Assembly (NCBI GenBank): GCA_000004985.1
Contig: GG738921.1
DNA from: Naegleria gruberi
Lineage: Eukaryota
Strand: one strand, 5' to 3'
DNA: 64,000 nucleotides
The position numbers were made by a program, and so were the translations under genes. This document shows positions 1 to 61,375 of the stretch, one piece after another; the stretch's first letter is position 1; every line of letters starts with the position of its first letter. The notes under the pieces were generated by a model. That model did no database searches and was not told where the DNA came from. It saw nothing but the letters and a program-made list of their open reading frames with translations.

Positions 1-1654
1 AATTTTAGCCTCGTCGTATCTACCTTTTAATTCCTTAAAGGATGACTCTATTTTTGAGTAGTCTATCAGTAACTGGGTATATTGTACCTTGATACTCTCC
101 TTTTCCTTGTCATCTCCATTCTTTAAACTCAAATTTTTAAACTCCTTTTCATAATTTTGAACAAATGCTTCCAGCTCTCGTCTCTTTCTAACTTCAATGT
201 TTAACCTTTGTTCCATGTCATCGTACTCTGCTGTTAGAATAGCCATTTCCTTTAGTGTTTGTTCCACACTTTCTTGCTTAATTTTCTGCACTTGTTCTTC
301 TGTATATATCACTATTTCTGGTGGTGGTGAGGTAGACATATCCTTCCTCTCAACAATTGTGGTCTTCTCCTCAACCTTAAAGTCTGTCAAAAAATATGGA
401 TCCAAAGGAGAGAATTGAGGTGGTTGGTTACACTGTTTGTCTTTTGGTGTAGATTGCTCAATCTCCTCAAAGTTTCTGGTTTCAGTTTTTACAATTAACT
501 TTGGTGTTGCAGGTCTATCATGGAGCTCAATCTTTGGAAGATCGAAAGAGGTGTTGACTTCTGGTTCTTGAATTTTGATCATTTCGGATAAACTTGAAGG
601 TTGGTCAGAAATTGATGACGTAGAAGTAGTTGAGGAAATTGATGAATTTGATACATTTGTTTTAATATCCTCTCCTTTTTCCAATAGATATTCCAAATTT
701 GTTATTGCTGTTTTGATATCTTCATTTTCTTCTCTTTTCAGTTTCTTTAAACATTTGATGATGGTGTCTCGGTTGAAAATATCTGCCCTTTGTTTTTGAA
801 GATTGTAAACTGAAACTAAGGCTGAGCGTTTTGTTTCAATATTTCCTTGATAGGAAACGTCATCCAAATACTCCTCAAACAATCCATATGATACAATTCC
901 GATAGATCCGTTGACATTTTGAATTTCCTCAAGACAACCTCTGCAAGATGATGATATCGAGTCAATTATTGAGAAGGTTCCTTTCAATAGAGGTTTTAAC
1001 AATATAGCGTTCAATACCTCAAAATCCTCATCCAACAACCTAACAATCGATACAATTACATCACACGAAGCCTTGACGATTGAAGACCTTAAATCCGAAA
1101 GCTGCAAAACTCATTATACAACACAACATTATCCTATAACTTACCATAATCGATAATGGTTCTTGAATAGATATGGCAATTTCAAGTGCTTTTTTCTTTG
1201 ATATTGTTCCTGAAGTGAGTACATCATCCAACTCTTGCAGACAATCTAACTTTGTTGACCAATGTGTTTCCAGTGATTGGAGACTCGTTATGCAACCCCT
1301 CTCAGTCTCTGTTATATTTTCTGGTTCAATATCTATCACTCTGCTCGAATTTATATTTTGATGATTATCAAAGGCTCCGAAGCTAGCTCCCTCAATTAAA
1401 GGACTCTCCTAAAACAATTCCTTAAATACACCAAAAACATAACTTCAACTTACCGATGATTCATCCAGTGGAGAATGATCAAAAAACGACTGTGCAGTTG
1501 CACTCTGATTTCTACTTATTACAAGTAGTCTCGATTTCAATTCCTCTGATGATGAGGGCGTAGTCATGCTGACTGAGGAGGACGTTATTTTTTTGATTAA
1601 ATAATTTCGCGCCCAATTTATTGTATGTTGTTCATATTCCTGGCCGCTGTTCAT
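1..1654 (-). CDS. Multi-exon gene with its 3' end off the window; exons 1454..1654 (ATG at 1654), 1145..1408 and 1..1101; unknown helical N-terminal part, Ser/Thr-rich middle and coiled-coil C-terminal region
   Basis: Manual minus-strand translation is open through all three exons. Introns 1409..1453 (45 nt, GTAAGT...TTTTAG) and 1102..1144 (43 nt, GTAAGT...TTTGCAG) restore the frame between track ORFs 1445..1654 and 1061..1339. An in-frame TAA lies directly upstream of ATG 1654. Confidence 0.6.
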
Positions 1655-8667: not shown

Positions 8668-9761
8668 CTATTTGTTTAACCAAGCATGTGGAGGTATTTT
8701 TCCTGATTCACGAGCATTCACATAGAGTTCCCAAGCTTTTTCAGGATTATAGTTGGCCTCTGATAGACAAATAACAGTAAACTCTCTCGTGAGACCAGAT
8801 AAGGATGAAAACTTTTGTATCAGTTCCTCTTCTGGAGAAATGTTATGGTGTTGATGATTCTGGTGGTGAATCGATGGCTGTTGTTGTGGCTGTGGACTGG
8901 AATAATCTGAATCATGATAATTCTTAGATGAATAGATACTGTTAAGGCGTTCTTCTGCCTCTTTGGATGAAAAACTTAGGTTAGAATTGTTATACGAACT
9001 ATTATACGAAATATTCGAATTATAGTATTCCTCTTCTTCCTCTTGTTCCTCTTCATGATATTCAGGTGAAGAATGTGAAACATTTTTGGAACTGCTACTA
9101 CTAGAAGGTTTAGAAGACTTAGCATGTTTTTCCTCCTGCTTTTTCTTGGATTCTCTTTTCACTTCATTTGCAAGATATAGCAATACATAATTCCTCATCT
9201 TGTCAACTTCCTCCCATTCATGACTCTTCTCTGGAATTAATTCCAATAACCTCTGAATACTATCAATATATCGATACGTATCCCTCAAAGTAAAATGATT
9301 TTGATGAGCCCACTTATTTCTACAATTCCTAGCTTCAAATAATAAATTCCTATCCGTATTAGTCAACCATCTATTTCCCGCAGCAAACGCATCATTCCAA
9401 TGTCGTTGTATAACTCCAATAATATTCTGTGTATCCCAAGCACTTGATGCTGATAAATTAACATTAAATCTCGGAGCAGATGAAGATGATCCTCTTCCAA
9501 ATGTTGTAGCACTCATATAATCACCTCCCTGATCTTGATTACTTGCTGCTTTTTCTACAATTTCCTTCCAGCCTTCTCCATACTCTTCGGACAAGGCTGT
9601 TTTCACCAGAGGTTCATAAATTCTATTAAAATACTTTAAACACCTTCCGATAATATCGTGAATCTAAAATGTAACTTCCGTTTTGATCAAAAAGAGTCTT
9701 TAATATTACATCATACCTTTTGTTGATCGAGAGTTTCATCCTTCTTGTCGTGTTTTCCCAT
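8668..9761 (-). CDS. HEPN-motif (Rx4H) domain protein with Gln/Ser/Glu-rich linker and UBA-like C-terminus; exons 9717..9761 and 8668..9663
   Basis: ATG at 9761 (exon 1 MGKHDKKDETLDQQK), intron 9664..9716 (53 nt, GTATGA...TTTTAG), then ORF 8668..9606 in frame. Core ...AAGNRWLTNTDRNLLFEARNCRNKWAHQNHF carries the RNKWAH Rx4H signature of HEPN RNase domains. Confidence 0.55.
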
Positions 9762-9834
9762 TTTTTTTAAAAATTTAAATTTAAAAATAGTATTTTAACT
9801 ATTTAATAATTATTGAAAAGATTACAATATTAAA

Positions 9835-12125
9835 TCAATAAAAAAAAAATTCTAATACTGTTTCACCATATTCGTTAAGCATTTCCAATTTAAAATCAGA
9901 ATCATTCTTTAACAAATCATCTGCAAAATATAATGCATACTCATCATATTGAGCTACCTCTTTCATGAATGACTTGTCTATTTTGAATGACACATCAATA
10001 TATTCCAATACTAAAACGTTTTGAATGACTGCTTCAATTACAATTTCCTTATCCATCTGTAATGATGAATCAAGAGAAAATAATACGAATCCATCATTTT
10101 GCAATGCAATCTTTACAATTTCTCTATCTTTTTGGAATTTTGGATCAACGTATTCCAATGCTGCTCCATCAATTTCAACCAATTGTAAAACAAAATCTCT
10201 ATCTTTCTTCCAAGATTCGTCTACATATGTCAATGCATGCACATTATTGCCTACTGCTGCTTTGATAATGTCTGGATCATTTTTGAAATCTTCACTCACA
10301 TATTCCAATGCTGTTCCCTTCTGTTTAACTGTTTCTAAAATGAATTTCTTATCATTCCTTATTAATTCATCGGCTTGTTGAATAGATGGTCGAAACTTCT
10401 TAATAACCTCTAATACAAGCTCCTTATCATTTTTATAATAATTTGGAGCTCTTGGTAAGATGGAAGCAGAATATAACTCCTCAATAAAATCATTCTGTGC
10501 AAACTCATTGATTGACTTCACTAGTGTATCTCTTGAAGTTTCGAATATTTCCTCAATGTTTTCAGTGAAATCGTTCTCACAGAAATCTAGATTGGATAGT
10601 GCTATTTGAAGAGCTTCCTCAACATGACTAAATTGTTTCATGATAAATTCTCTATTCCTTATTTTTTTCAATTCAATTCCTAGTTGTTCAATAACTTTTA
10701 AATTATTTTCAATATCATTCTTCAAAGATTCAACACAAGCCTGAAGCGATAATTTAAATCTTTCAACTGTCAATTGAATAATTTGTTCATCATGTTTAAG
10801 AGATGAATCTATTTCGAAATAGGCATTAGCATTCTGTTGAATAGCTGTTTCGATTATTTCTCTATCCTTCTTAAATGTAGCATTATTAACATAGGCAAGA
10901 GACGTTCCATCCTCTCTGACTGCTTCTAATACTATTTCTCTATCTATTTCATTAATATATTTCAATAAATATCCTTTCCTGTTAACAACTTGCATTATGA
11001 ATTGTCTATCCATTCTCAACAATTCATTATTTTCAAATGGATTGCATTTAAAATAAACATCACTAAATGAAAGGCATGCCAATATAATATCTCTATTATG
11101 AGTAAAATTATCATTAATACCTATTGGATATGATTTAAAAAAATCTGATGATAATCCATTTGTCTTGAATATTCTACTCAATATTTCACTTGCATTTGGC
11201 CTCATTTCATAATCGTCATTCAACATGGAAATTAGGATTTTGAAAAATTCAGTCCAACCTTCAATATCATCATCCAAATTAGCTTCCTTAATTATTTGTG
11301 AAATATTATTATTTTCCATGTGAATGATTAAATATTGATATATATCATCTAAATGATGTTGAATATCTAGGGATTCATTTTTTGGAAATATTACATTTAA
11401 TAATGATCTACCTAAACTCCAAATATCACTCCTGAAAGATATTAAACCTTGATTTAGGCATTCAGGTGCAATAAATCCAAAAGTCCCACATATGAAAGAA
11501 GAGGAAGAAGAACTCTCTGATAAATTTGATGGGTTTGAATCAACATCTTGAACTTTTGTAACAGTGACACCAATTCTATCAGAAGGTATTGGACATGCAT
11601 TCTCTCTAACACTTCCCAAATCTCCAATAATTGTCTCTATATGGAGAATATTATCCTCTTTTTTGGTAATTATTGTTTCTTGGAGGAATAAATTGTCTGG
11701 TTTGATATCACAATGAATTAAATTGTTATCATGAAGAGATTTTAGTCCATGACTGGTTTTAATTAGAATTTGAAGTAAATTTCCCAAATAGAGTTTAGGT
11801 TTCAAATTTCTATAATTAGACAAATTAATACCTCTATATTTGGAAATAATAATAGCTTCATTTCCATTCTTTTCAGTGATTTCATAAGTTAATATATTTG
11901 CATTGTGCATTTGTTTAGCTTTCATATTATGTTCAATTTCTCCATAATTATAAATTTAATTTTAACAACATAATGACCATTTAAATTTACATCGGTTCCA
12001 ATATATTTAGATTTGAATACAATAATACCGTCATTTCTTGCAAGTTTTAATGGTTCTTCAATTTGTAGTGCCAAGTGTTGGATGGTGATCTCCGATTTTG
12101 TGTGAATGGTTGAAATTAAACTCAT
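9835..12125 (-). CDS. Protein kinase (Ser/Thr-type catalytic loop) followed by about 8 DUF4116-type repeats; the N-lobe is split over two ORFs by a frame break near 11925-11960
   Basis: HCDIKPDNLF (catalytic loop), DLGS (DFG-like) and GTFGFIAPE (APE) motifs. The C-terminal two thirds are reiterated about 35-aa units (KDREIVLEAV.. DGTSLAYV.. and similar), typical of DUF4116. Upstream ORF 11922..12125 has N-lobe-like sequence (YVVKIK) in another frame, and no intron of plausible size reconciles the two. Confidence 0.65.
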
Positions 12126-12272: not shown

Positions 12273-13367
12273 TTAATTTAAGGTTGTGTATTGTTTCTTA
12301 CGATAAAACATGTAAAGTAATCCAATAATTGAGACAGAGAAACAAATAATCACGAAAAGACCACCTATGGTTGCTCCAACGATAATTCCAATATCTGAAC
12401 TGTCATCCTTTTTTGGATTAAATGGAGAAGGTGATTGACCATTGACAGTAAAATTTTGAGCATTTGAAACAGAGAATTCAGTACATGCAGAATTTCTGTT
12501 CAATTTTCCAAATAAGATATTCTTCAATTTTTGATCATTGCACAAATTGCACTTGTCATTAGAATTGACACATGACTTGACATTTGAATTAATAAGGGAA
12601 TAGTTTGAGAAAATTTCAAATTCACCAATAACTAGGGACTGAGAACCATTACACAAAGGTCCTTCAATAGTTTCAATCATCATTTCAAAATTTCCCAATT
12701 TAAATCTCGAAAGTGTTTTCGTCTCTGAAAATTTAACATAAAATTTGTGTTGCATGTCTTCAGTGACGAACCAATCCTTCTTTTCTACAAATTCATCACA
12801 GAAAGTAGTAGGATATCTTTCACTTTGTTCAAATTCTAATTCAATAAATGAATTCTTCAAGGTTAATTGAGTGCAATTGTTAGTCAATTGAGTTTGATAA
12901 GCATTTTGAGATGTTCCCGCTGTTCTGAAGAATTTTTGCCACTTTGAGCAAGCCATGGCTCTGTTGGACTCATCTGTGGAGGAAAACTTGCCAAAATATT
13001 CATAACATGGAGTAAGTGATGCACTGCCCAATCTAATACTTTCGTCGAAAATAGTATAGCTAACTGAGAACTCAATCACAAGATCTCTTGTATTTCCTTC
13101 ATAATTAAAATCAACAACTTGTACATGTGCATACTGTTCACTGAAAAACATGTGCATTTGATTGAAATTGCTAGGATTGGTCGAGTATTTAAAACCGTTC
13201 ATGGTTGTTGTGAAATTCTTTCCAATTAAAAAATCTCTTGTGATGCTGGTTGGACATTCATCACACAAGATGACATTCAATAGACAACAACAGGATATGA
13301 CCAATAGGATGGACAACAACAGGAAGTGGAGATTGACAGTTCGCATTATTGAATTATTTTTTAACAA
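12273..13367 (-). CDS. Type I membrane glycoprotein: signal peptide, Cys-rich and N-glycosylation-rich ectodomain, one C-terminal TM helix and short basic tail
   Basis: N-terminal hydrophobic MRTVNLHFLLLSILLVISCC; many NxS/T sites; C-terminal IGIIVGATIGGLFVIICFSVSIIGLLYMFYRKKQ. Confidence 0.5.
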   Translation of the reverse strand: MLKNNSIMRTVNLHFLLLSILLVISCCCLLNVILCDECPTSITRDFLIGKNFTTTMNGFKYSTNPSNFNQMHMFFSEQYAHVQVVDFNYEGNTRDLVIEFSVSYTIFDESIRLGSASLTPCYEYFGKFSSTDESNRAMACSKWQKFFRTAGTSQNAYQTQLTNNCTQLTLKNSFIELEFEQSERYPTTFCDEFVEKKDWFVTEDMQHKFYVKFSETKTLSRFKLGNFEMMIETIEGPLCNGSQSLVIGEFEIFSNYSLINSNVKSCVNSNDKCNLCNDQKLKNILFGKLNRNSACTEFSVSNAQNFTVNGQSPSPFNPKKDDSSDIGIIVGATIGGLFVIICFSVSIIGLLYMFYRKKQYTTLN

Positions 13368-13693
13368 TTTGAAATAATTTGAGATTCGATTAGAATTAAA
13401 CTATTTAAGATAATTATCTTGGTGGATGTTATATGGAGTTTTGCGCATGTGGAATTATATTGGAATCTATTTGGCATTCAAGAAAAGTGTGTAACGGAGT
13501 TAAATTACAGTGACCATACTTATTGAGTATGAGATACAATGTTCCCATAGCTGAGGATTCGTGTATTAATATATCCATTACTGTTCGTTCTTATTCTCTC
13601 ACTTCTTTTATTAATAAACTACTAGAAATGTACATTTCTATTATTGAACCGATGTGAATGAATAAACAAAGAAATATTTCATAGTGAATGTAT

Positions 13694-13765
13694 TCCCGTG
13701 TAGTCCAATGGCTAGGATACCTGGCTTTCACCCAGGAGGTCCGGGTTCAATTCCCGGCATGGGAG
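13694..13765 (+). tRNA. tRNA-Glu (anticodon UUC)
   Basis: Cloverleaf folded by hand: acceptor TCCCGTG/CATGGGA, D arm GTCC..GGAT, anticodon stem CCTGG/CCAGG with loop CTTTCAC, T arm CCGGGTTCAATTCCCGG. Close to eukaryotic tRNA-Glu consensus. Confidence 0.85.
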
Positions 13766-13840
13766 GATAATTTTACATTTTCAAATGCGGAATAGTTTGG
13801 TTATCATCTCCGGATTTATTTCTGAAACACTGCAAAAAAA

Positions 13841-14326
13841 ATGGCAAACTCCTTTTCTTTCATCTTGTTTGCCATCTTGGTTTTGAATTGGGCCTTGTTA
13901 GCCAATTGTAATTTGACTTTTTCACAACAAACATTCAACACTCTCCTCAACTCAACCCAAACTTCAACTCTATCACTGACAATGTACATGGGAGGTGGAA
14001 CAACCATCAAAAACAGTAACAACAGCACATGTGGAATGTCTGTGGATAATCCATGTACAAACTTTAATCAATTATTATTAACTTTTAATTGGACACTCTT
14101 TAGTCAATTTGAGAATTTCACAAAAGCAACATCGGCAGGTGAAAGAAACGTTCACTTGAAGATACTGATACTTCCAGATGGCAGTATTTTCTGTCCTATC
14201 AATCCAGTTAATTTATCTCCTTCAATGAATTATCATTTAGAATTTACGAAACTAGTCGAATCATCAACAATAACACCCATCTTGACCTGCCTCAACACAC
14301 AAGATGGAAATGGCATTTCCATTCCT
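13841..14326 (+). CDS. 5' part of a putative receptor-like kinase gene: signal peptide plus N-glycosylated Cys-containing extracellular domain, running into the assembly gap
   Basis: MANSFSFILFAILVLNWALLANC signal-like N-terminus; ORF open until the N run at 14327. Confidence 0.45.
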
Positions 14327-15520
14327 NNNNNNNNNNNNNNNNNNNNNNNNNNNNNNNNNNNNNNNNNNNNNNNNNNNNNNNNNNNNNNNNNNNNNNNNNN
14401 NNNNNNNNNNNNNNNNNNNNNNNNNNNNNNNNNNNNNNNNNNNNNNNNNNNNNNNNNNNNNNNNNNNNNNNNNNNNNNNNNNNNNNNNNNNNNNNNNNNN
14501 NNNNNNNNNNNNNNNNNNNNNNNNNNNNNNNNNNNNNNNNNNNNNNNNNNNNNNNNNNNNNNNNNNNNNNNNNNNNNNNNNNNNNNNNNNNNNNNNNNNN
14601 NNNNNNNNNNNNNNNNNNNNNNNNNNNNNNNNNNNNNNNNNNNNNNNNNNNNNNNNNNNNNNNNNNNNNNNNNNNNNNNNNNNNNNNNNNNNNNNNNNNN
14701 NNNNNNNNNNNNNNNNNNNNNNNNNNNNNNNNNNNNNNNNNNNNNNNNNNNNNNNNNNNNNNNNNNNNNNNNNNNNNNNNNNNNNNNNNNNNNNNNNNNN
14801 NNNNNNNNNNNNNNNNNNNNNNNNNNNNNNNNNNNNNNNNNNNNNNNNNNNNNNNNNNNNNNNNNNNNNNNNNNNNNNNNNNNNNNNNNNNNNNNNNNNN
14901 NNNNNNNNNNNNNNNNNNNNNNNNNNNNNNNNNNNNNNNNNNNNNNNNNNNNNNNNNNNNNNNNNNNNNNNNNNNNNNNNNNNNNNNNNNNNNNNNNNNN
15001 NNNNNNNNNNNNNNNNNNNNNNNNNNNNNNNNNNNNNNNNNNNNNNNNNNNNNNNNNNNNNNNNNNNNNNNNNNNNNNNNNNNNNNNNNNNNNNNNNNNN
15101 NNNNNNNNNNNNNNNNNNNNNNNNNNNNNNNNNNNNNNNNNNNNNNNNNNNNNNNNNNNNNNNNNNNNNNNNNNNNNNNNNNNNNNNNNNNNNNNNNNNN
15201 NNNNNNNNNNNNNNNNNNNNNNNNNNNNNNNNNNNNNNNNNNNNNNNNNNNNNNNNNNNNNNNNNNNNNNNNNNNNNNNNNNNNNNNNNNNNNNNNNNNN
15301 NNNNNNNNNNNNNNNNNNNNNNNNNNNNNNNNNNNNNNNNNNNNNNNNNNNNNNNNNNNNNNNNNNNNNNNNNNNNNNNNNNNNNNNNNNNNNNNNNNNN
15401 NNNNNNNNNNNNNNNNNNNNNNNNNNNNNNNNNNNNNNNNNNNNNNNNNNNNNNNNNNNNNNNNNNNNNNNNNNNNNNNNNNNNNNNNNNNNNNNNNNNN
15501 NNNNNNNNNNNNNNNNNNNN
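14327..15520. other. Assembly gap (1194 N)
   Basis: Run of n characters; all track ORFs with long X stretches are artefacts of this gap. Confidence 1.
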
Positions 15521-15522
15521 TT

Positions 15523-16716
15523 GGAATAGCATTAGGTTTTGGAATATTCTTTGTGTGGAAAATTGTAAAGAAATTGAGAAAACTGAAAAGTAAGGAGAAG
15601 GCAGAGAAACAAATTGAAGAAAAACTTTTAGACAAGCGACTTATTTTCAATATGAATGACGAGGAGGATGAATATTATGAGGGCTCCACACCAAATATTG
15701 AAAGAAGCAAATCATCTTATGGGAAAGTATCTGAAAAGGAGTTAGTTTCTTCATTGATTGACAGTGAAAAGAAGAAATCAAAACATTCTTTCAGTTTTTC
15801 ATCCTCTTACATTATTCCAATTGAAGACATATCAATTATTAAAAAGATTGGAGAAGGAGGCGCAGCTAATGTATATTATGGTACATGGACCAATATTAAA
15901 GTGGCTATCAAGTCACTCAAGATTGACAGTTTTGATGATGATTTTGAGAATGAAGCAGCCATCCTCAGTTTAATTAGACATCCAAACATTCTGACATTCT
16001 ATGGAGTATGTTTGACTGATAAGAGTCGATATATTGTGACTGAATATATGGAAAATGGCTCTCTAGACAGGTATATATTTTTGAATAAGAACAGAGCATT
16101 GAATATTGACCTATTCAAATCAAATATTGGAATTTTGTGTGGAATTGTGGATGGTATGCAATATTTACACTCTCTTAAACCTTCAATTATTCACAGAGAT
16201 TTGAAATCGAGTAATATATTGTTGGACGAAAGAAATACTCCAAAAGTTTCTGATTTTGGTCTTGTTAAAGTATTGGGAAACAATACAATCAGTCAAATTA
16301 CAAAAGGAATTGGTACAGTGTATTATTTAGCTCCAGAAACATTCATTGCTGAACATCAAATTGAAAATAAGGAAGAGGCAACCAAGTTGGACATTTACAG
16401 TTTTGCAATAATCATGTGGGAATTATTCTTTCGAATGAGTCCTTATCATCATGTGAAAAATCCATTCAAAGTGCCTCAAATGGTTGTCAATGGAGAAAGA
16501 CCTCAAATTCCCTTCAATATTGAAAATGATACGGAAATCAAAGAATGGCTTTCAATTCAAGCATTGGAAATTTCATCGTCTGACAATTCTTTCATTAATG
16601 GTATTAAGAAATACTTCTCACTCATTCTCCAATGTTGGAATCAAAATCCATTACAAAGACCTACATTCCTGACAATTAGAAGAGAATTGGATGAGATTTA
16701 CAATCTAATCGGTTGA
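15523..16716 (+). CDS. TM segment plus TKL-type Ser/Thr protein kinase domain; probable 3' part of the receptor-like kinase that begins at 13841
   Basis: Immediately after the gap the frame reads GIALGFGIFFVWKIVKKLRKLK (end of TM helix plus basic stop-transfer). Then IGEGGAANVYYG (glycine loop), VAIK, HRDLKSSNILLD, DFGLVK and YLAPE. Stop at 16714-16716. Confidence 0.75.
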   Translation, partial: GIALGFGIFFVWKIVKKLRKLKSKEKAEKQIEEKLLDKRLIFNMNDEEDEYYEGSTPNIERSKSSYGKVSEKELVSSLIDSEKKKSKHSFSFSSSYIIPIEDISIIKKIGEGGAANVYYGTWTNIKVAIKSLKIDSFDDDFENEAAILSLIRHPNILTFYGVCLTDKSRYIVTEYMENGSLDRYIFLNKNRALNIDLFKSNIGILCGIVDGMQYLHSLKPSIIHRDLKSSNILLDERNTPKVSDFGLVKVLGNNTISQITKGIGTVYYLAPETFIAEHQIENKEEATKLDIYSFAIIMWELFFRMSPYHHVKNPFKVPQMVVNGERPQIPFNIENDTEIKEWLSIQALEISSSDNSFINGIKKYFSLILQCWNQNPLQRPTFLTIRRELDEIYNLIG

Positions 16717-18293: not shown

Positions 18294-21200
18294 TCATTCC
18301 TCTTCTGCTTCTTCTCTATTGTATCCAAATGGATGACAAGTTTTTCTACTCATTAAGGCAAGACAACAATTTACAACATATTCAAAGTAAGGCTTTCCAT
18401 CTACATGGATTAGTTTGGGTTGATAGTAGGCTCTTTGTACTGCATTCCTTCCTGAACTTGCAAGTGAATGAAATGTATTTTTGAAAACAAAGAATGATTC
18501 TGTGTGGAAATCAGAATTTGCAAATATTGCTTTAACTTTGATTGATTCCAATTCGTTTTCTTTGTCATTGTAATCAAATGAACATAGATATAGGTATAAT
18601 GATGAGTTTTCTCTAAAATCCTTAACCTCTGTTAATTATCGCGTAGAGAAATACAGTGTTTGTAACTAATTTCATAAAACTACTTACTATTGGCAACACC
18701 CAAGTGATTGAAACAAGCTGAAAACTTGGCTCCAAATGCTGTGAACTTATCTGAATAACAACATCTATCAATATTATCAGGACTAACACGAAATGTCAAA
18801 GTATGGATGGATAATGGAAACTCTGTTGCCCATCTATGAACAATAGGAGGATAATTAGTTGAGGATGATTCCTTTCTTCCAACATGGAACATTTCAATAT
18901 TATTGAAAGGTTTGAATGGTTCTTCCTCAACTTTCTTCATCCCAACCACAAATTTAAACTTGAGAAAATCATCGTCATCTGTTGAGTAAGCGGCAATATG
19001 GGTCTTATCAAGAAATATTCCATAAGATGCTTTAGGCATAATGAATTTTCTACTGTGAACAAGATAGGATTGAGGTTCTAGATCAAAATTACAAATAAAA
19101 AAGTCGAGTCTTATTCTATCAAATACCTGTTGCTTATTCTCTACTGGAATTGTGGAATTTAGTGTTAAAAATACTGTAGAATTGCCCAAACATTCATCTT
19201 CATCATCTGTTTCCGATTAGACAATTAGAAAATTAATAAAACGTAACATACCTGGCAGAAGCTCCACAACCCACTCGTGTCCAAACTGTATGAAAGGTTC
19301 AGAATAATAGCTAGTATTAAAAGGGCCAGTTTTTGGTACCTTAACATCTGCAATATGAATGGTATAATCTTTTTTCTGTGGTGGAATATTTTCCTGCACA
19401 AATTGGAAAAGGTCTTCTCCTATAGGTTTCAATATTGGCTTAATTTTTGTTTCTGTGAACTCTGTATCTATTTTTGCTTTCTTTTCTGCAATAAGTTCTA
19501 AGGTTTTCTTAGAAGATTTGAAAAATTCATTGGACATAACTAGGTTGATAAAGTCCAAAATGCTATCATTTTGTGGGAAATGATCCACTACTGCAATAAC
19601 AGTATTAATAATAACATGTCCAGAAAAATTACAAATTTCTTGTTTCCCATCAATAAACTGATGTAAAACTCTACTGATCATCTTTTGTGTGCAATTTTGA
19701 ATATTATCATATATCAAACATTGTATGATACACTCAAAACAATTGAAAAAACTGGTGAACCTCCCTAAATCCATTAAAATATTAGCAACAACACAAAATT
19801 CAGTTTGAGATAATATTTTAGGTATTAACTTTTCCAGATCGTGAATATTATTTTCCTCAAATATAATTTTTCCTTCTTTCCATAGTACATCCAAAAGATC
19901 AAATATTCCATAAAAGTCCACACTAGTTTCATCTTGAAAAGCAGTCAGAAAAAGTTTACAAATTTCGGCTTTCGAAATGTCTAAAAAAACATAGCTGGAT
20001 AGTTGTTCAATAGCTAAACATGCATCTTTCATTTCTCTTAAATATATTCTTTCTCTTACATAGGAAAGACATTGATCAATATCATTATAATCAATTGTTG
20101 GGTAAATCCGTTTTGTGCTTAGTGGTTCTTCTTTCATTATAACGGTAACCCTGTTAACTTCTTGTTCAAAAAGAGAATAATCTGCGCTCAATACTCTAGA
20201 GTCAAAGCATTCCAACAGTAAAACTCTACAATTGGTGAATTGTCTGAAATATTGTGTCGATTCTTGTGTAAGGCCGTCATTGTACTCTATTTTTAGGATA
20301 TCCAACTCATCAGATAGGGGAATAATATCCTTAATAAATTCATCTTGAATCTTACACCTTGAAAACACTAATTCTTTTAAAATTTTTGTAGAGAGTAGCC
20401 AGTCTTTGAATCCAATTTCTGCTCCAGTAATCTCTCCGACAAAAGAAAGATTAGTAATGTTACTTGGAAAAGTGCACTCTTGTAAGTTAGTAACTTGCTC
20501 ACCAAAGCATACTTTCAATGTTGTCAAATTCTTGAATTCTCCAAGATATTTTAGATATTCAACATTCTCGTTGGTTACCCTTACATTAAGAACCTTTAGA
20601 GAACTCCTAGGTAAATGAGGAATAACTGAAGCTTCAATGGCCTCACCTAAAACTTCTTCCAGTTTGCAATTTACTATTGCTTGGATATTTTGATGAATAA
20701 TTTTATCTTCGAACTGTTCACCTTGCAGATCCAATATTTTTAAATCTTCACAGTCATGGAGAAATGAATGGTTCCTCCTCAATATCAATATAAGTATCAG
20801 TATGGTACAGCAGTTTTTCCAAATGTTGTCCTATTAAAGCCTTAACAACATTAAAACAAATTATTTCGTTAGTACCTCCATAAATTTTAAGAATTCTGAG
20901 TTGTAAACAACTTTTCAATTGTTCCAAAATATCTTCTTTTACAATTGTAAATTGAAAATTTCTAGGAAAGTCTAATGTTAATTTAGACAACTTAGAGAGA
21001 TTACAGAGACAACCTAGCAATGTATCTAACTCATATGAGGGATCATATTCATTAGTGAAAACAACATTCAATCTTTCTAATGTTCTTGAAAGGATGCTCA
21101 AATTCTTTTGGAGATTCAATATTGTTTCATCAGAAGTTGATTTCCATACCACCTTGAGCTTTTTCAAATGGGAGAATGAATTAGATGAAAATACTGAAAA

Positions 21201-22020
21201 GTATGAACCAGTTATATTTGATAGTGTGTCTCGAGCAAAGAGGGAAAATTTTTCAATCTTTTGTGAAACATTGGAAAGTACTAATGACATAATAGAATCA
21301 TCAAAATAACTAGGGTTGATAACCAAAACTGTTAAATTTGGACATTGTTGTGTGATATCCTCAATATTCTTGCGTGTTAGTGGATAGCTAGAACGAAACT
21401 CTGTCAAAGATTGAGGAAACCCAATCACGGTTTGATCCATTTCTTCTTCATGGAGGTTTAGTTCAGATAAAAGGCTTATCAACTCGAGAGTTTTTAAATT
21501 TTTAAACTCTTTCAACAAGTGAAAATATTCAGTTTTAAGATTAGTAAGTGTCAATACTGTCAAAGATTCCAACAATGGACTTGCATTCATTATCCACTCA
21601 ACAATGAAACTTCCAGAAATACAAGTTGCAGCTCTCAACCTCAACTCTTCCATTGACAATCGTCCAAGCTCACACAAACCCACATCTAAAAAAGCATATA
21701 TTAATCGACCATTCATAAATAATAATAATAAATTGATAACAATTACCTGTTAATGACGAGAACTCCAAAGAATTGAATGTAAACAAATCAATAACCTTCA
21801 ATCGTTTCATCTTGATCAGTAAATTATCCACAACTCCTCCGATCCTATGATTACTCAATCCGATGTGAATAAAGTATTGGGTCTTGTTATTCAGGAAATA
21901 ATACCAGATCCACTCGGCAAAAGTCTTTGAAATAAATCTCATCTGCAACAAGTGGTATTCATTGAAAAAACATAGCAAGTGTTCGGCACACAAATCACAA
22001 GGTAAATTCTGAATTTTCAT
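18294..22020 (-). CDS. Very large F-box-like / leucine-rich-repeat protein; exons 21747..22020, 19252..21685 (internal frame break near 20754-20788), 18689..19206, 18294..18629
   Basis: N-terminus NLPCDLCAEHLLCFF..FISKTFAEWI is F-box-like. Long LRR-like region with internal duplication (KTEYFHLLKEFKNLKTLEL versus NVEYLKYLGEFKNLTTLKV). Introns 21686..21746 (61 nt), 19207..19251 (45 nt, GTATGT..AACAG) and 18630..18688 (59 nt, GTAAGT..AACAG) verified by frame continuity. Track ORFs 20754..21716 and 19217..20788 overlap by 35 nt in different frames. Confidence 0.55.
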
Positions 22021-60404: not shown

Positions 60405-61375
60405 ATGCCACAACATGTCCATCATCACTCCCTCTCACCTTCAAGACCAGTCGTCGTTATTGATAATGGCTCGGGAATGATTAAGGTAGGATTTTCCTGT
60501 AGTGATTCTCCCAGAGCCATATTTCCAACAATAGTAGGGCATAAAAAAGAGTCATCAGATCAAAAGAAGGAAACAACCAACAATGATCTCAATAGTATCG
60601 GATCATCATTTGTTGGAGAGATGGCAATAGCTCATCGAGAATTATTGGACATAAAAAGTCCCATGGAAAATGGAATAATTTCAAATTTTGATGATATGGA
60701 AAAGATTTGTTATCATCTCTATCCGGAGTTCTTGTCACAGAACCAAGTTAGAATCCAAAGTTGGTGAGAGAAAAAACAACAGAAATATTTTTTGAAAAGT
60801 TTAAGGCCAATCAGTGATGGGACTTTGTTCGAGTGCCAGATCAGATGGTGTTGTTTTGGATGCTGGTTATACGAAATCATATGCTGTTCCAATTCTTGAA
60901 GGAATTGCATTGCCACATGCCATTCAGGTGATGNNNNNNNNNNNNNNNNNNNNNNNNNNNNNNNNNNNNNNNNNNNNNNNNNNTTCACAAAGAGGAGGTT
61001 TGAATTGTCAGATGGAAGCAAAGTGAATTTTGGAGAGGAATTAATGTCATGTCCAGAAGCTCTATTCAACCCACAGTTAATCAAAGAAGGAGAAGGAATT
61101 CACAAGATTCTCGTCAATTCCATTTTCAATTCAAATGCAGAAATCACAAGACAACTCTTTGCCAATATTGTCCTTGTCGGTGTCTCAACAATGTTTGAAG
61201 GTTTTCCCAATCATTGAATTGGCTCCTCTCTCTGTAAAAGTGAAAATCCTTTCATTCCCCGAAAGAAAACTCTTCCTGGTTTGGAGGTTCAATTACGAGC
61301 TCTCTTTCAGAATTCCACAATATGGCCATTCACAAAAAGGAATATGAAGAAGTTGGACCTAGAATTGTAATGTAG
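60405..61375 (+). CDS. Divergent actin-related protein (ARP); interrupted by a 50-N gap and at least two single-base frame breaks
   Basis: [30 protein letters not shown], ..[36 protein letters not shown], then in three different frames: [53 protein letters not shown].., ..[20 protein letters not shown].. and ..[33 protein letters not shown]. These blocks are colinear with actin. Confidence 0.6.
60934..60983. other. Assembly gap (50 N) inside the ARP gene
   Basis: n run. Confidence 1.

Follow-up and report, generated by a model that had tools for sequence, protein, structure and literature searches.

The DNA considered here is a stretch of 64,000 nucleotides of the Naegleria gruberi contig GG738921.1, which we refer to as the window. 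Between positions 13841 and 16716, on the plus strand, it most probably carries one N. gruberi gene that is broken by a gap in the scaffold and encodes a receptor-like protein kinase of type I topology, at least about 1127 residues long. The gap, a run of exactly 1194 N (14327..15520), separates a 5' open reading frame (ORF) with a signal-peptide-like start from a second frame encoding the end of a membrane helix and a tyrosine kinase-like (TKL) kinase. A first-pass annotation of the window, made from the sequence alone, had read the locus as a receptor kinase made of signal peptide, ectodomain, membrane helix and TKL kinase. This architecture was right, as both the full helix and the ectodomain are found in another N. 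gruberi protein, XP_002668266.1. Its coordinates were also exact for the secreted and glycosylated N-terminal piece that runs into the gap (secretion and glycosylation being predictions), and the helix end, the basic stop-transfer cluster and the complete kinase that it announced do emerge past the gap on the same strand. Finally, it had placed most of the ectodomain inside the gap, in agreement with the 568 residues of XP_002668266.1 that are absent from the window.

The frame to the right of the gap (15523..16713, plus strand, as for the 5' ORF) is open for 397 codons and is closed by a TGA stop codon read at 16714..16716. Its product begins with GIALGFGIFFVW (15523..15558), the C-terminal 12 residues of a predicted 27-residue membrane helix (FAIIIIGCSLFLFALGIALGFGIFFVW), directly followed by KIVKKLRKLKSKEK. 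The juxtamembrane region (15559..15828) consists of a basic stop-transfer cluster, the motif KKLRKLKSKEKAEKQIEEKLLDKRLIF and an acidic, Ser-rich linker that extends up to the IIPIEDI motif. In Kyte-Doolittle profiles, we found no second hydrophobic segment besides the helix in the kinase part. The TKL-like Ser/Thr protein kinase domain itself (15829..16713) was delimited from Pfam matches and aligned catalytic motifs. The two matches were PK_Tyr_Ser-Thr (PF07714; E = 3.8e-50, 171 bits) and, with a slightly lower score, Pkinase (PF00069; E = 1.3e-48, 166 bits). We recovered the full set of catalytic motifs, namely GEGGAANV, VAIK, FENEA, HRDLKSSN, SDFG, LAPE, KLDIYSF and LQRPTF, which provide the Gly-rich loop, the VAIK Lys, the alphaC Glu, the HRD Asp, the catalytic Asn, the DFG Asp, the APE motif and the Asp and Arg of the C-lobe. 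Judging from these motifs, the kinase is apparently complete and catalytically competent. An insert specific to the family described below precedes CWNQNPLQRPTF in the C-lobe.

The position of this kinase among the known groups was examined from its database matches and signatures. The top matches were plant receptor-like kinases (RLKs), RIPK2 and the TKLs of Dictyostelium and Entamoeba, no named TKL family being prominent. Relatives of solved structure in the PDB included CTR1, RIPK2, TNNI3K and RAF (E = 1e-36 to 1e-30); Src, Abl, CSK and ITK were interleaved among them, and a reconstructed Src/Abl ancestor was the top match. The catalytic loop HRDLKSSN is of the Ser/Thr type and the C-lobe bears tyrosine kinase-like signatures. 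By the sequence features of the TKL group, the kinase is TKL-like. Its HRDLKSSN loop, together with the GT of GTVYYLAPE, indicates Ser/Thr specificity, possibly dual specificity.

Most of the part hidden by the gap can be recovered from XP_002668266.1, a partial N. gruberi protein of 658 residues encoded on a small unplaced scaffold of 4902 nt. Its last 90 residues (569-658) are 100% identical to the translation of 15523..15792, and its residues 1-568 are absent from the window. Upstream of the overlap, XP_002668266.1 supplies the rest of the 27-residue helix, with a Kyte-Doolittle maximum of 2.76 at residues 554-572, then a stalk next to the membrane that contains a Cys pair (CDEGYYLE...YDC) and about 520 residues of beta-rich ectodomain with seven sequons. 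A single predicted membrane helix, seen in full in this protein, thus lies between the ectodomain and the kinase. The overlap includes the fast-evolving linker, and the closest paralogue reaches no more than about 40% identity. In addition, the protein collection searched contained no other N. gruberi entry identical to this kinase part. The complete identity, linker included, and the lack of a second identical kinase suggest that XP_002668266.1 by far most likely derives from the same gene or from its other allele. A convincing signal peptide is missing from XP_002668266.1, whose residues 8-26 (VWIPLNIILENCIFANVLI) are only moderately hydrophobic (just above 1.6) and contain an Asn and a Glu. 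An upstream exon is therefore needed.

The locus is already annotated as NAEGRDRAFT_75121, a model that joins both sides of the gap. The corresponding protein, XP_002669879.1, is a "predicted protein" of 519 residues on a 207-kb scaffold of N. gruberi; the kinase piece is 100% identical to it, and the joined translation of 13841..14254 and 15571..16716 reproduces it exactly. What this model treats as an intron (14255..15570, plus strand, with donor GTCGAA and acceptor ..AAAG) spans the gap. It drops 24 ectodomain codons on the left side and 16 codons on the right side, the latter comprising the end of the helix and four juxtamembrane codons. Could the model nevertheless be correct, the gene encoding a protein of 519 residues with a 1.3-kb intron over the gap, and hence a signal peptide followed by a kinase without membrane helix? 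The GT..AG pair and the conservation of the frame are in its favor, but a protein kinase would then end up in the secretory lumen, open coding sequence would be lost on both sides of the gap together with the end of the membrane helix, and a helix is present in all paralogues. Moreover, XP_002668266.1 continues the right frame upstream through the full helix and 550 residues of ectodomain. We thus consider this reading barely credible. The "intron" of NAEGRDRAFT_75121 is an artefact of the annotation: the model treats the gap as an intron and thereby fuses the signal peptide to the kinase with the membrane helix left out, a product that has no sensible topology. With the receptor kinase restored, the gap has to accommodate at least the 568 codons (1704 nt) of XP_002668266.1 that are missing from the window, so that its stated size of 1194 is too small. 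The length of the protein is then at least 1127 residues (162 + 568 + 397).

The receptor kinase belongs to a family in Naegleria. Besides the window gene, it comprises N. gruberi NAEGRDRAFT_64576 (XP_002680385.1), the N. lovaniensis proteins C9374_002450 (with its upstream neighbor model; locus L003), C9374_002741 (L002) and C9374_008101 (L004), and a metagenome relative (L001). XP_002680385.1, L002, L003 and L001 all exhibit the same colinear chain of Pmp-like repeats, CPxGY...C stalk, membrane helix, KLxKLKxKERAEKxIE juxtamembrane helix, IIPIEDI motif and kinase. The juxtamembrane motif KKLRKLKSKEKAEKQIEEKLLDKRLIF is conserved in XP_002680385.1, in the metagenome relative, in C9374_002450 and in C9374_002741. 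The kinases of the family are 37-45% identical to that of the window over the aligned region and have in common an insert of 25-30 residues (..EW..) located in the C-lobe before Y..L...CW. In our alignment, both the juxtamembrane motif and this insert were missing in the outgroups from Entamoeba and Polysphondylium and in RIPK2. The ectodomains of the family, for their part, are almost unalignable outside the repeats. We observed no synteny between the window and the loci L002, L003 and L004, so that no positional orthologue was identified in N. lovaniensis.

The gene models of these relatives are themselves fragmentary. In N. lovaniensis, ectodomain and kinase are annotated as separate genes. 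L003 (8471..11847 of PYSW02000015.1) and L002 (8265..11515 of PYSW02000016.1) are chains of ORFs on the same strand, with frame changes, that correspond to two to four annotated genes; in L003, the annotation separates the beta-helix ectodomain (8672..9949) from the kinase (10001..11847). Judging from the DNA of these loci, the frame changes may be either short introns or defects. In the metagenome relative (JGI metagenome 3300002220), a one-base frame break around 1230..1290, which separates the ectodomain from the remainder of the gene, may likewise be either an assembly error or the mark of a pseudogene. Of the public models of the family, all those that we examined with the DNA of their locus were truncated, split or damaged by a gap; another one was without signal peptide.

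The repeats of the ectodomain give an indication of its type. In XP_002668266.1, we located GGAI at residues 289 and 327, GGVF at 359, and FxxN at 48, 227, 280, 308, 351 and 378. Four of the six FxxN motifs, all in the central ectodomain, are paired in register with GG motifs (FRDN..GGAIY, FINN..GGAIS, FANN..GGVFY, and FNSN). Repeats of the FxxN and GGA(I,L,V) types are the signature of the chlamydial Pmp proteins, where they make up the beta-helix coils (PMC10715098, PMC11166332). The ectodomain of the L003 paralogue passes the Pfam thresholds of both Chlam_PMP (60.1 vs. 20.6 bits) and Beta_helix (PF13229; 29.8 vs. 25.9 bits), and the repeat block of XP_002668266.1 aligns colinearly with it (E = 6e-4). 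Furthermore, a family profile of six sequences headed by XP_002668266.1 matched a bona fide PMP-repeat protein (P0121) with 97.4% probability and E = 9.6e-12. A homologue search with the 568-residue ectodomain alone returned only XP_002668266.1 itself and one weak PMP protein, and a sequence search of the PDB gave no match at E up to 10. On the strength of these repeats and alignments, the ectodomain is Pmp-like by sequence and probably forms a right-handed beta-helix. The C-terminal beta-barrel of autotransporters is absent, the C-terminus being occupied by the membrane helix and then the kinase; we thus rejected the identification of the protein as a Pmp autotransporter.

Left of the gap, the 5' coding piece (13841..14326, plus strand) consists of an ATG, a signal-peptide-like stretch (residues 1-23) and 139 residues of N-terminal ectodomain, and runs into the gap without a stop codon. 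Its frame has the ATG at 13841 as first start codon past an in-frame stop and then remains open for 162 codons up to the gap edge. With the base composition of the window (stop probability of 0.076 per codon), 162 stop-free codons would occur by chance with a probability of about 3e-6. The product begins with MANSFSFILFAILVLNWALLANC, and its residues 5-23 (FSFILFAILVLNWALLANC), preceded by a short n-region, are the sole strongly hydrophobic segment of the ORF (Kyte-Doolittle value of 2.09). This start resembles a signal peptide, for which cleavage is predicted, and the presence of seven N-x-S/T sequons within 162 residues predicts glycosylation of the product. A CGxxxxNPC motif (CGMSVDNPC) is located at residues 64-72. 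A tRNA-Glu(TTC) gene (13693..13766, plus strand) ends 74 nt upstream of the start codon of the receptor kinase, leaving very little space for a promoter and a 5' untranslated region.

The attachment of this 5' piece to the family is the most delicate point. A word-index search for homologues with the 162 residues yielded no match, and a HMMER search against 1.84 billion representatives recovered, besides the model of the gene itself, only two bacterial repeat proteins that are spurious matches. Comparisons with individual proteins were not significant either for the metagenome relative (E = 0.41, z = 1.3) or for the PMP-repeat protein P0121 (z = 0.6). At its start, some 250 residues ahead of the Pmp repeats, the L003 family member carries NSSSLGCGLTQENPCRYLN, which matches NSNNSTCGMSVDNPCTNFN in the 5' ORF. 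The Smith-Waterman score of this pair was 51 (z = 2.9-3.6), a score reached by 4-13 of 1000 shuffles.

One may thus suppose that there are two genes, the ORF at 13841 encoding a separate small secreted glycoprotein that ends in the gap and the receptor kinase starting inside the gap with a signal of its own. The join is indeed present in no sequence, no homologue firmly ties the 5' ORF to the family, and the XP_002668266.1 model starts with a Met and has the moderately hydrophobic stretch mentioned above near its N-terminus. This stretch, with its Asn and Glu, resembles a strand of a beta-helix more than a signal peptide, however, and a type I receptor requires a signal peptide, for which the 5' ORF provides the only candidate on the strand. 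Furthermore, no stop codon interrupts the 162 codons of the 5' ORF before the gap, and its CGxxxxNPC motif recurs at the N-terminus of the L003 member, upstream of the Pmp repeats. Two separate genes therefore appear quite improbable to us. That the two ORFs lie on one strand and both reach the gap in an open frame, that the only signal peptide candidate is found in the first of them, and that the same motif occurs in the 5' ORF and at the N-terminus of L003 all support a single gene. We infer with good confidence from these features that the 5' ORF and the ectodomain of XP_002668266.1 belong to one gene and form one reading unit; by the same reasoning, the whole locus would be expressed as one transcript.

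Several observations nevertheless weigh against the single-gene receptor kinase as described here. The 5' ORF has no significant homologue and is tied to the family solely by a short motif match that is marginally significant. The N. lovaniensis paralogues contain frame changes or introns, so that introns or defects may also be present inside the gap. Regarding the ectodomain, XP_002668266.1 remains under the Pfam cut-off for Chlam_PMP (PF02415; 13.9 vs. 20.6 bits). Its AlphaFold2 model, all-beta and obtained from a 5-sequence alignment, is poor (mean pLDDT of 45.6), apart from a long membrane/juxtamembrane helix at residues 551-610, where pLDDT, the predicted local confidence, reaches up to 78 in blocks. 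Foldseek comparison of this model with the PDB was not significant (best E = 0.08), the weak matches including beta-helix enzymes and tailspikes. Neither the AlphaFold2 model nor the Foldseek result was used as fold evidence.

The link between the scaffold and the window also belongs among these points. The match was established at the protein level over the 90 residues of the right flank, and is compatible with a scaffold that stems from the same locus, from the other allele or from a near-identical duplicate. In addition, about 2.9 kb of the scaffold lies beyond the sequence coding for XP_002668266.1; if scaffold and window were colinear, an overlap with the left flank would be expected, yet the two were not merged by the assembler. 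The scaffold could accordingly represent the second haplotype or a very recent duplicate located elsewhere, in which case the real ectodomain in the gap may differ from that of XP_002668266.1. That the assembler left the scaffold unplaced, and that its 4902 nt exceed the stated gap plus the 270-nt overlap, fit with this possibility. The perfect identity of the 90 residues, fast-evolving linker included, when the closest paralogue is at about 40%, argues against it, as does the lack of a second identical kinase in the protein collection; an allelic copy would moreover still represent the same gene. Altogether, we regard a second haplotype or duplicate as rather unlikely, and the recovered ectodomain as probably that of the window gene.

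The single receptor kinase gene can be compared with several known systems. The first-pass annotation had framed the locus as amoebozoan, but N. gruberi is an amoeboflagellate, a heterolobosean of the Discoba. It had also considered receptor kinases with TKL catalytic domains to be rare in amoebozoa, which is inaccurate since nine receptor-like TKL kinases are known in Dictyostelium (PMC1420674) and large TMK families in Entamoeba (PMC2880585). The Naegleria protein resembles the GDT/DRK proteins of Dictyostelium and the TMKs of Entamoeba histolytica in that it associates, in a unicellular eukaryote, a type I topology, a lineage-specific ectodomain and a TKL-type kinase (PMC1420674; PMC2880585). 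An Entamoeba TMK-like protein is indeed among the matches of the kinase (about 35% identity). In contrast to these Amoebozoa, Naegleria belongs to the supergroup Discoba, and the ectodomains are unrelated. The ectodomains of the Entamoeba TMKs are Cys-rich with CXXC motifs, and those of the Dictyostelium GDT proteins are novel. The Entamoeba matches carry a TIG domain (PF01833); a TIG domain is also present in Dictyostelium rk3 (PMC1420674).

Similarities with the plant RLK/Pelle kinases, animal RIPK2/IRAK and CTR1/RAF concern the kinase, which is 30-40% identical to theirs and has in common with them the HRDLKxxN catalytic loop and, in the C-lobe, the TK/TKL-type signatures DxYSFxxxxWE and CW...P..RP.F. 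Pfam scans detected no LRR (leucine-rich repeat), LysM, lectin or similar domain in the ectodomain, unlike in plant RLKs. The plant kinases matched with 31-42% identity, no better than RIPK2 or the amoebozoan proteins, and plant, animal and amoebozoan TKLs obtained about equal scores. We thus rejected, on the features tested, membership in the plant RLK/Pelle group, in view of the lack of a plant-type ectodomain and of plant matches that are no closer than the others. With the chlamydial Pmps, the ectodomain shares the FxxN and GGA(I,L,V) repeats (PMC10715098, PMC11166332), but it differs by the lack of an autotransporter beta-barrel and by its few repeats (three of the GGA type and six FxxN), below the Pfam cut-off in XP_002668266.1. 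Outside bacteria, Pmp-type repeats occur in trichomonads on membrane-anchored surface adhesins (PMC6701047). In the literature searched, we found no description of receptor kinases of Naegleria or of kinases with a Pmp-like ectodomain. Among the protist receptor-like TKL kinases, an already known group, the gene represents a lineage-specific member.

The other features of the window lie outside this gene. The neighboring coding sequence on the minus strand (12273..13349) encodes a type I membrane glycoprotein that belongs to no Pfam family: after a signal peptide, its Cys-containing ectodomain bears many sequons, and a membrane helix leads to a short tail. The first-pass annotation had suggested comparing it with the ectodomain of the receptor; BLASTP gave no match better than E = 2 and we rejected a kinship between the two. 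Further upstream, also on the minus strand, a 696-residue ORF (9835..11925) contains an N-terminally incomplete kinase match followed by nine DUF4116 repeats (301 bits), and another ORF (8668..9606) has a Swt1-like HEPN domain, a TAP C-terminal (UBA-like) domain and a low-complexity middle part rich in Ser, Asn and Gln. Downstream, two adjoining long ORFs of 523 and 320 residues (19217..21716, minus strand) look leucine-rich-repeat-like by eye, the first being without Pfam match. A second assembly gap of the window, of 50 N, is located at 60934..60983.

From the N-terminus, the receptor would thus comprise a cleavable signal peptide, an N-terminal cap with the CGxxxxNPC motif, a long all-beta ectodomain with central Pmp-like repeats, a membrane-proximal stalk with a conserved Cys pair, the 27-residue helix, a basic/acidic helical juxtamembrane segment and the TKL-like kinase. 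Domains of the beta-helix and Pmp types typically act in adhesion or bind carbohydrates. We can thus imagine that the glycosylated beta-helix ectodomain binds an extracellular ligand or surface, and that this ligand sits on prey bacteria or on the substrate. Ligand binding would gather receptors, and this clustering would be transmitted through the single helix and the charged juxtamembrane helix. The RD-type kinase could then be activated via phosphorylation of its Ser/Thr-rich activation loop (DFGLVKVLGNNTISQITKGIGTVYYLAPE) and, once active, would phosphorylate cytosolic targets. The fold, the ligand and the mode of activation are all proposed here from the sequence features described above.

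The main value of these results is practical: the wrong NAEGRDRAFT_75121 model can be corrected by joining it to XP_002668266.1. They also add a case from Discoba to the lineages, among them plants, Dictyostelium and Entamoeba, in which single-pass TKL receptor kinases with a lineage-specific ectodomain were assembled independently. We hold it possible, though short of likely, that Naegleria and its heterolobosean relatives independently built a receptor kinase family with a Pmp-like beta-helix sensor that has been overlooked so far because the public models are truncated, split or gap-damaged. The association of a Pmp-like ectodomain with a kinase holds moderate interest for studies on how receptor signaling evolved and on the surface biology of Naegleria, and leaves the general picture unchanged. 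In such a family, a module whose other known occurrences are in bacterial autotransporter adhesins and in the surface proteins of trichomonads would couple the recognition of surfaces or carbohydrates, for instance those of prey bacteria, directly to TKL kinase signaling.

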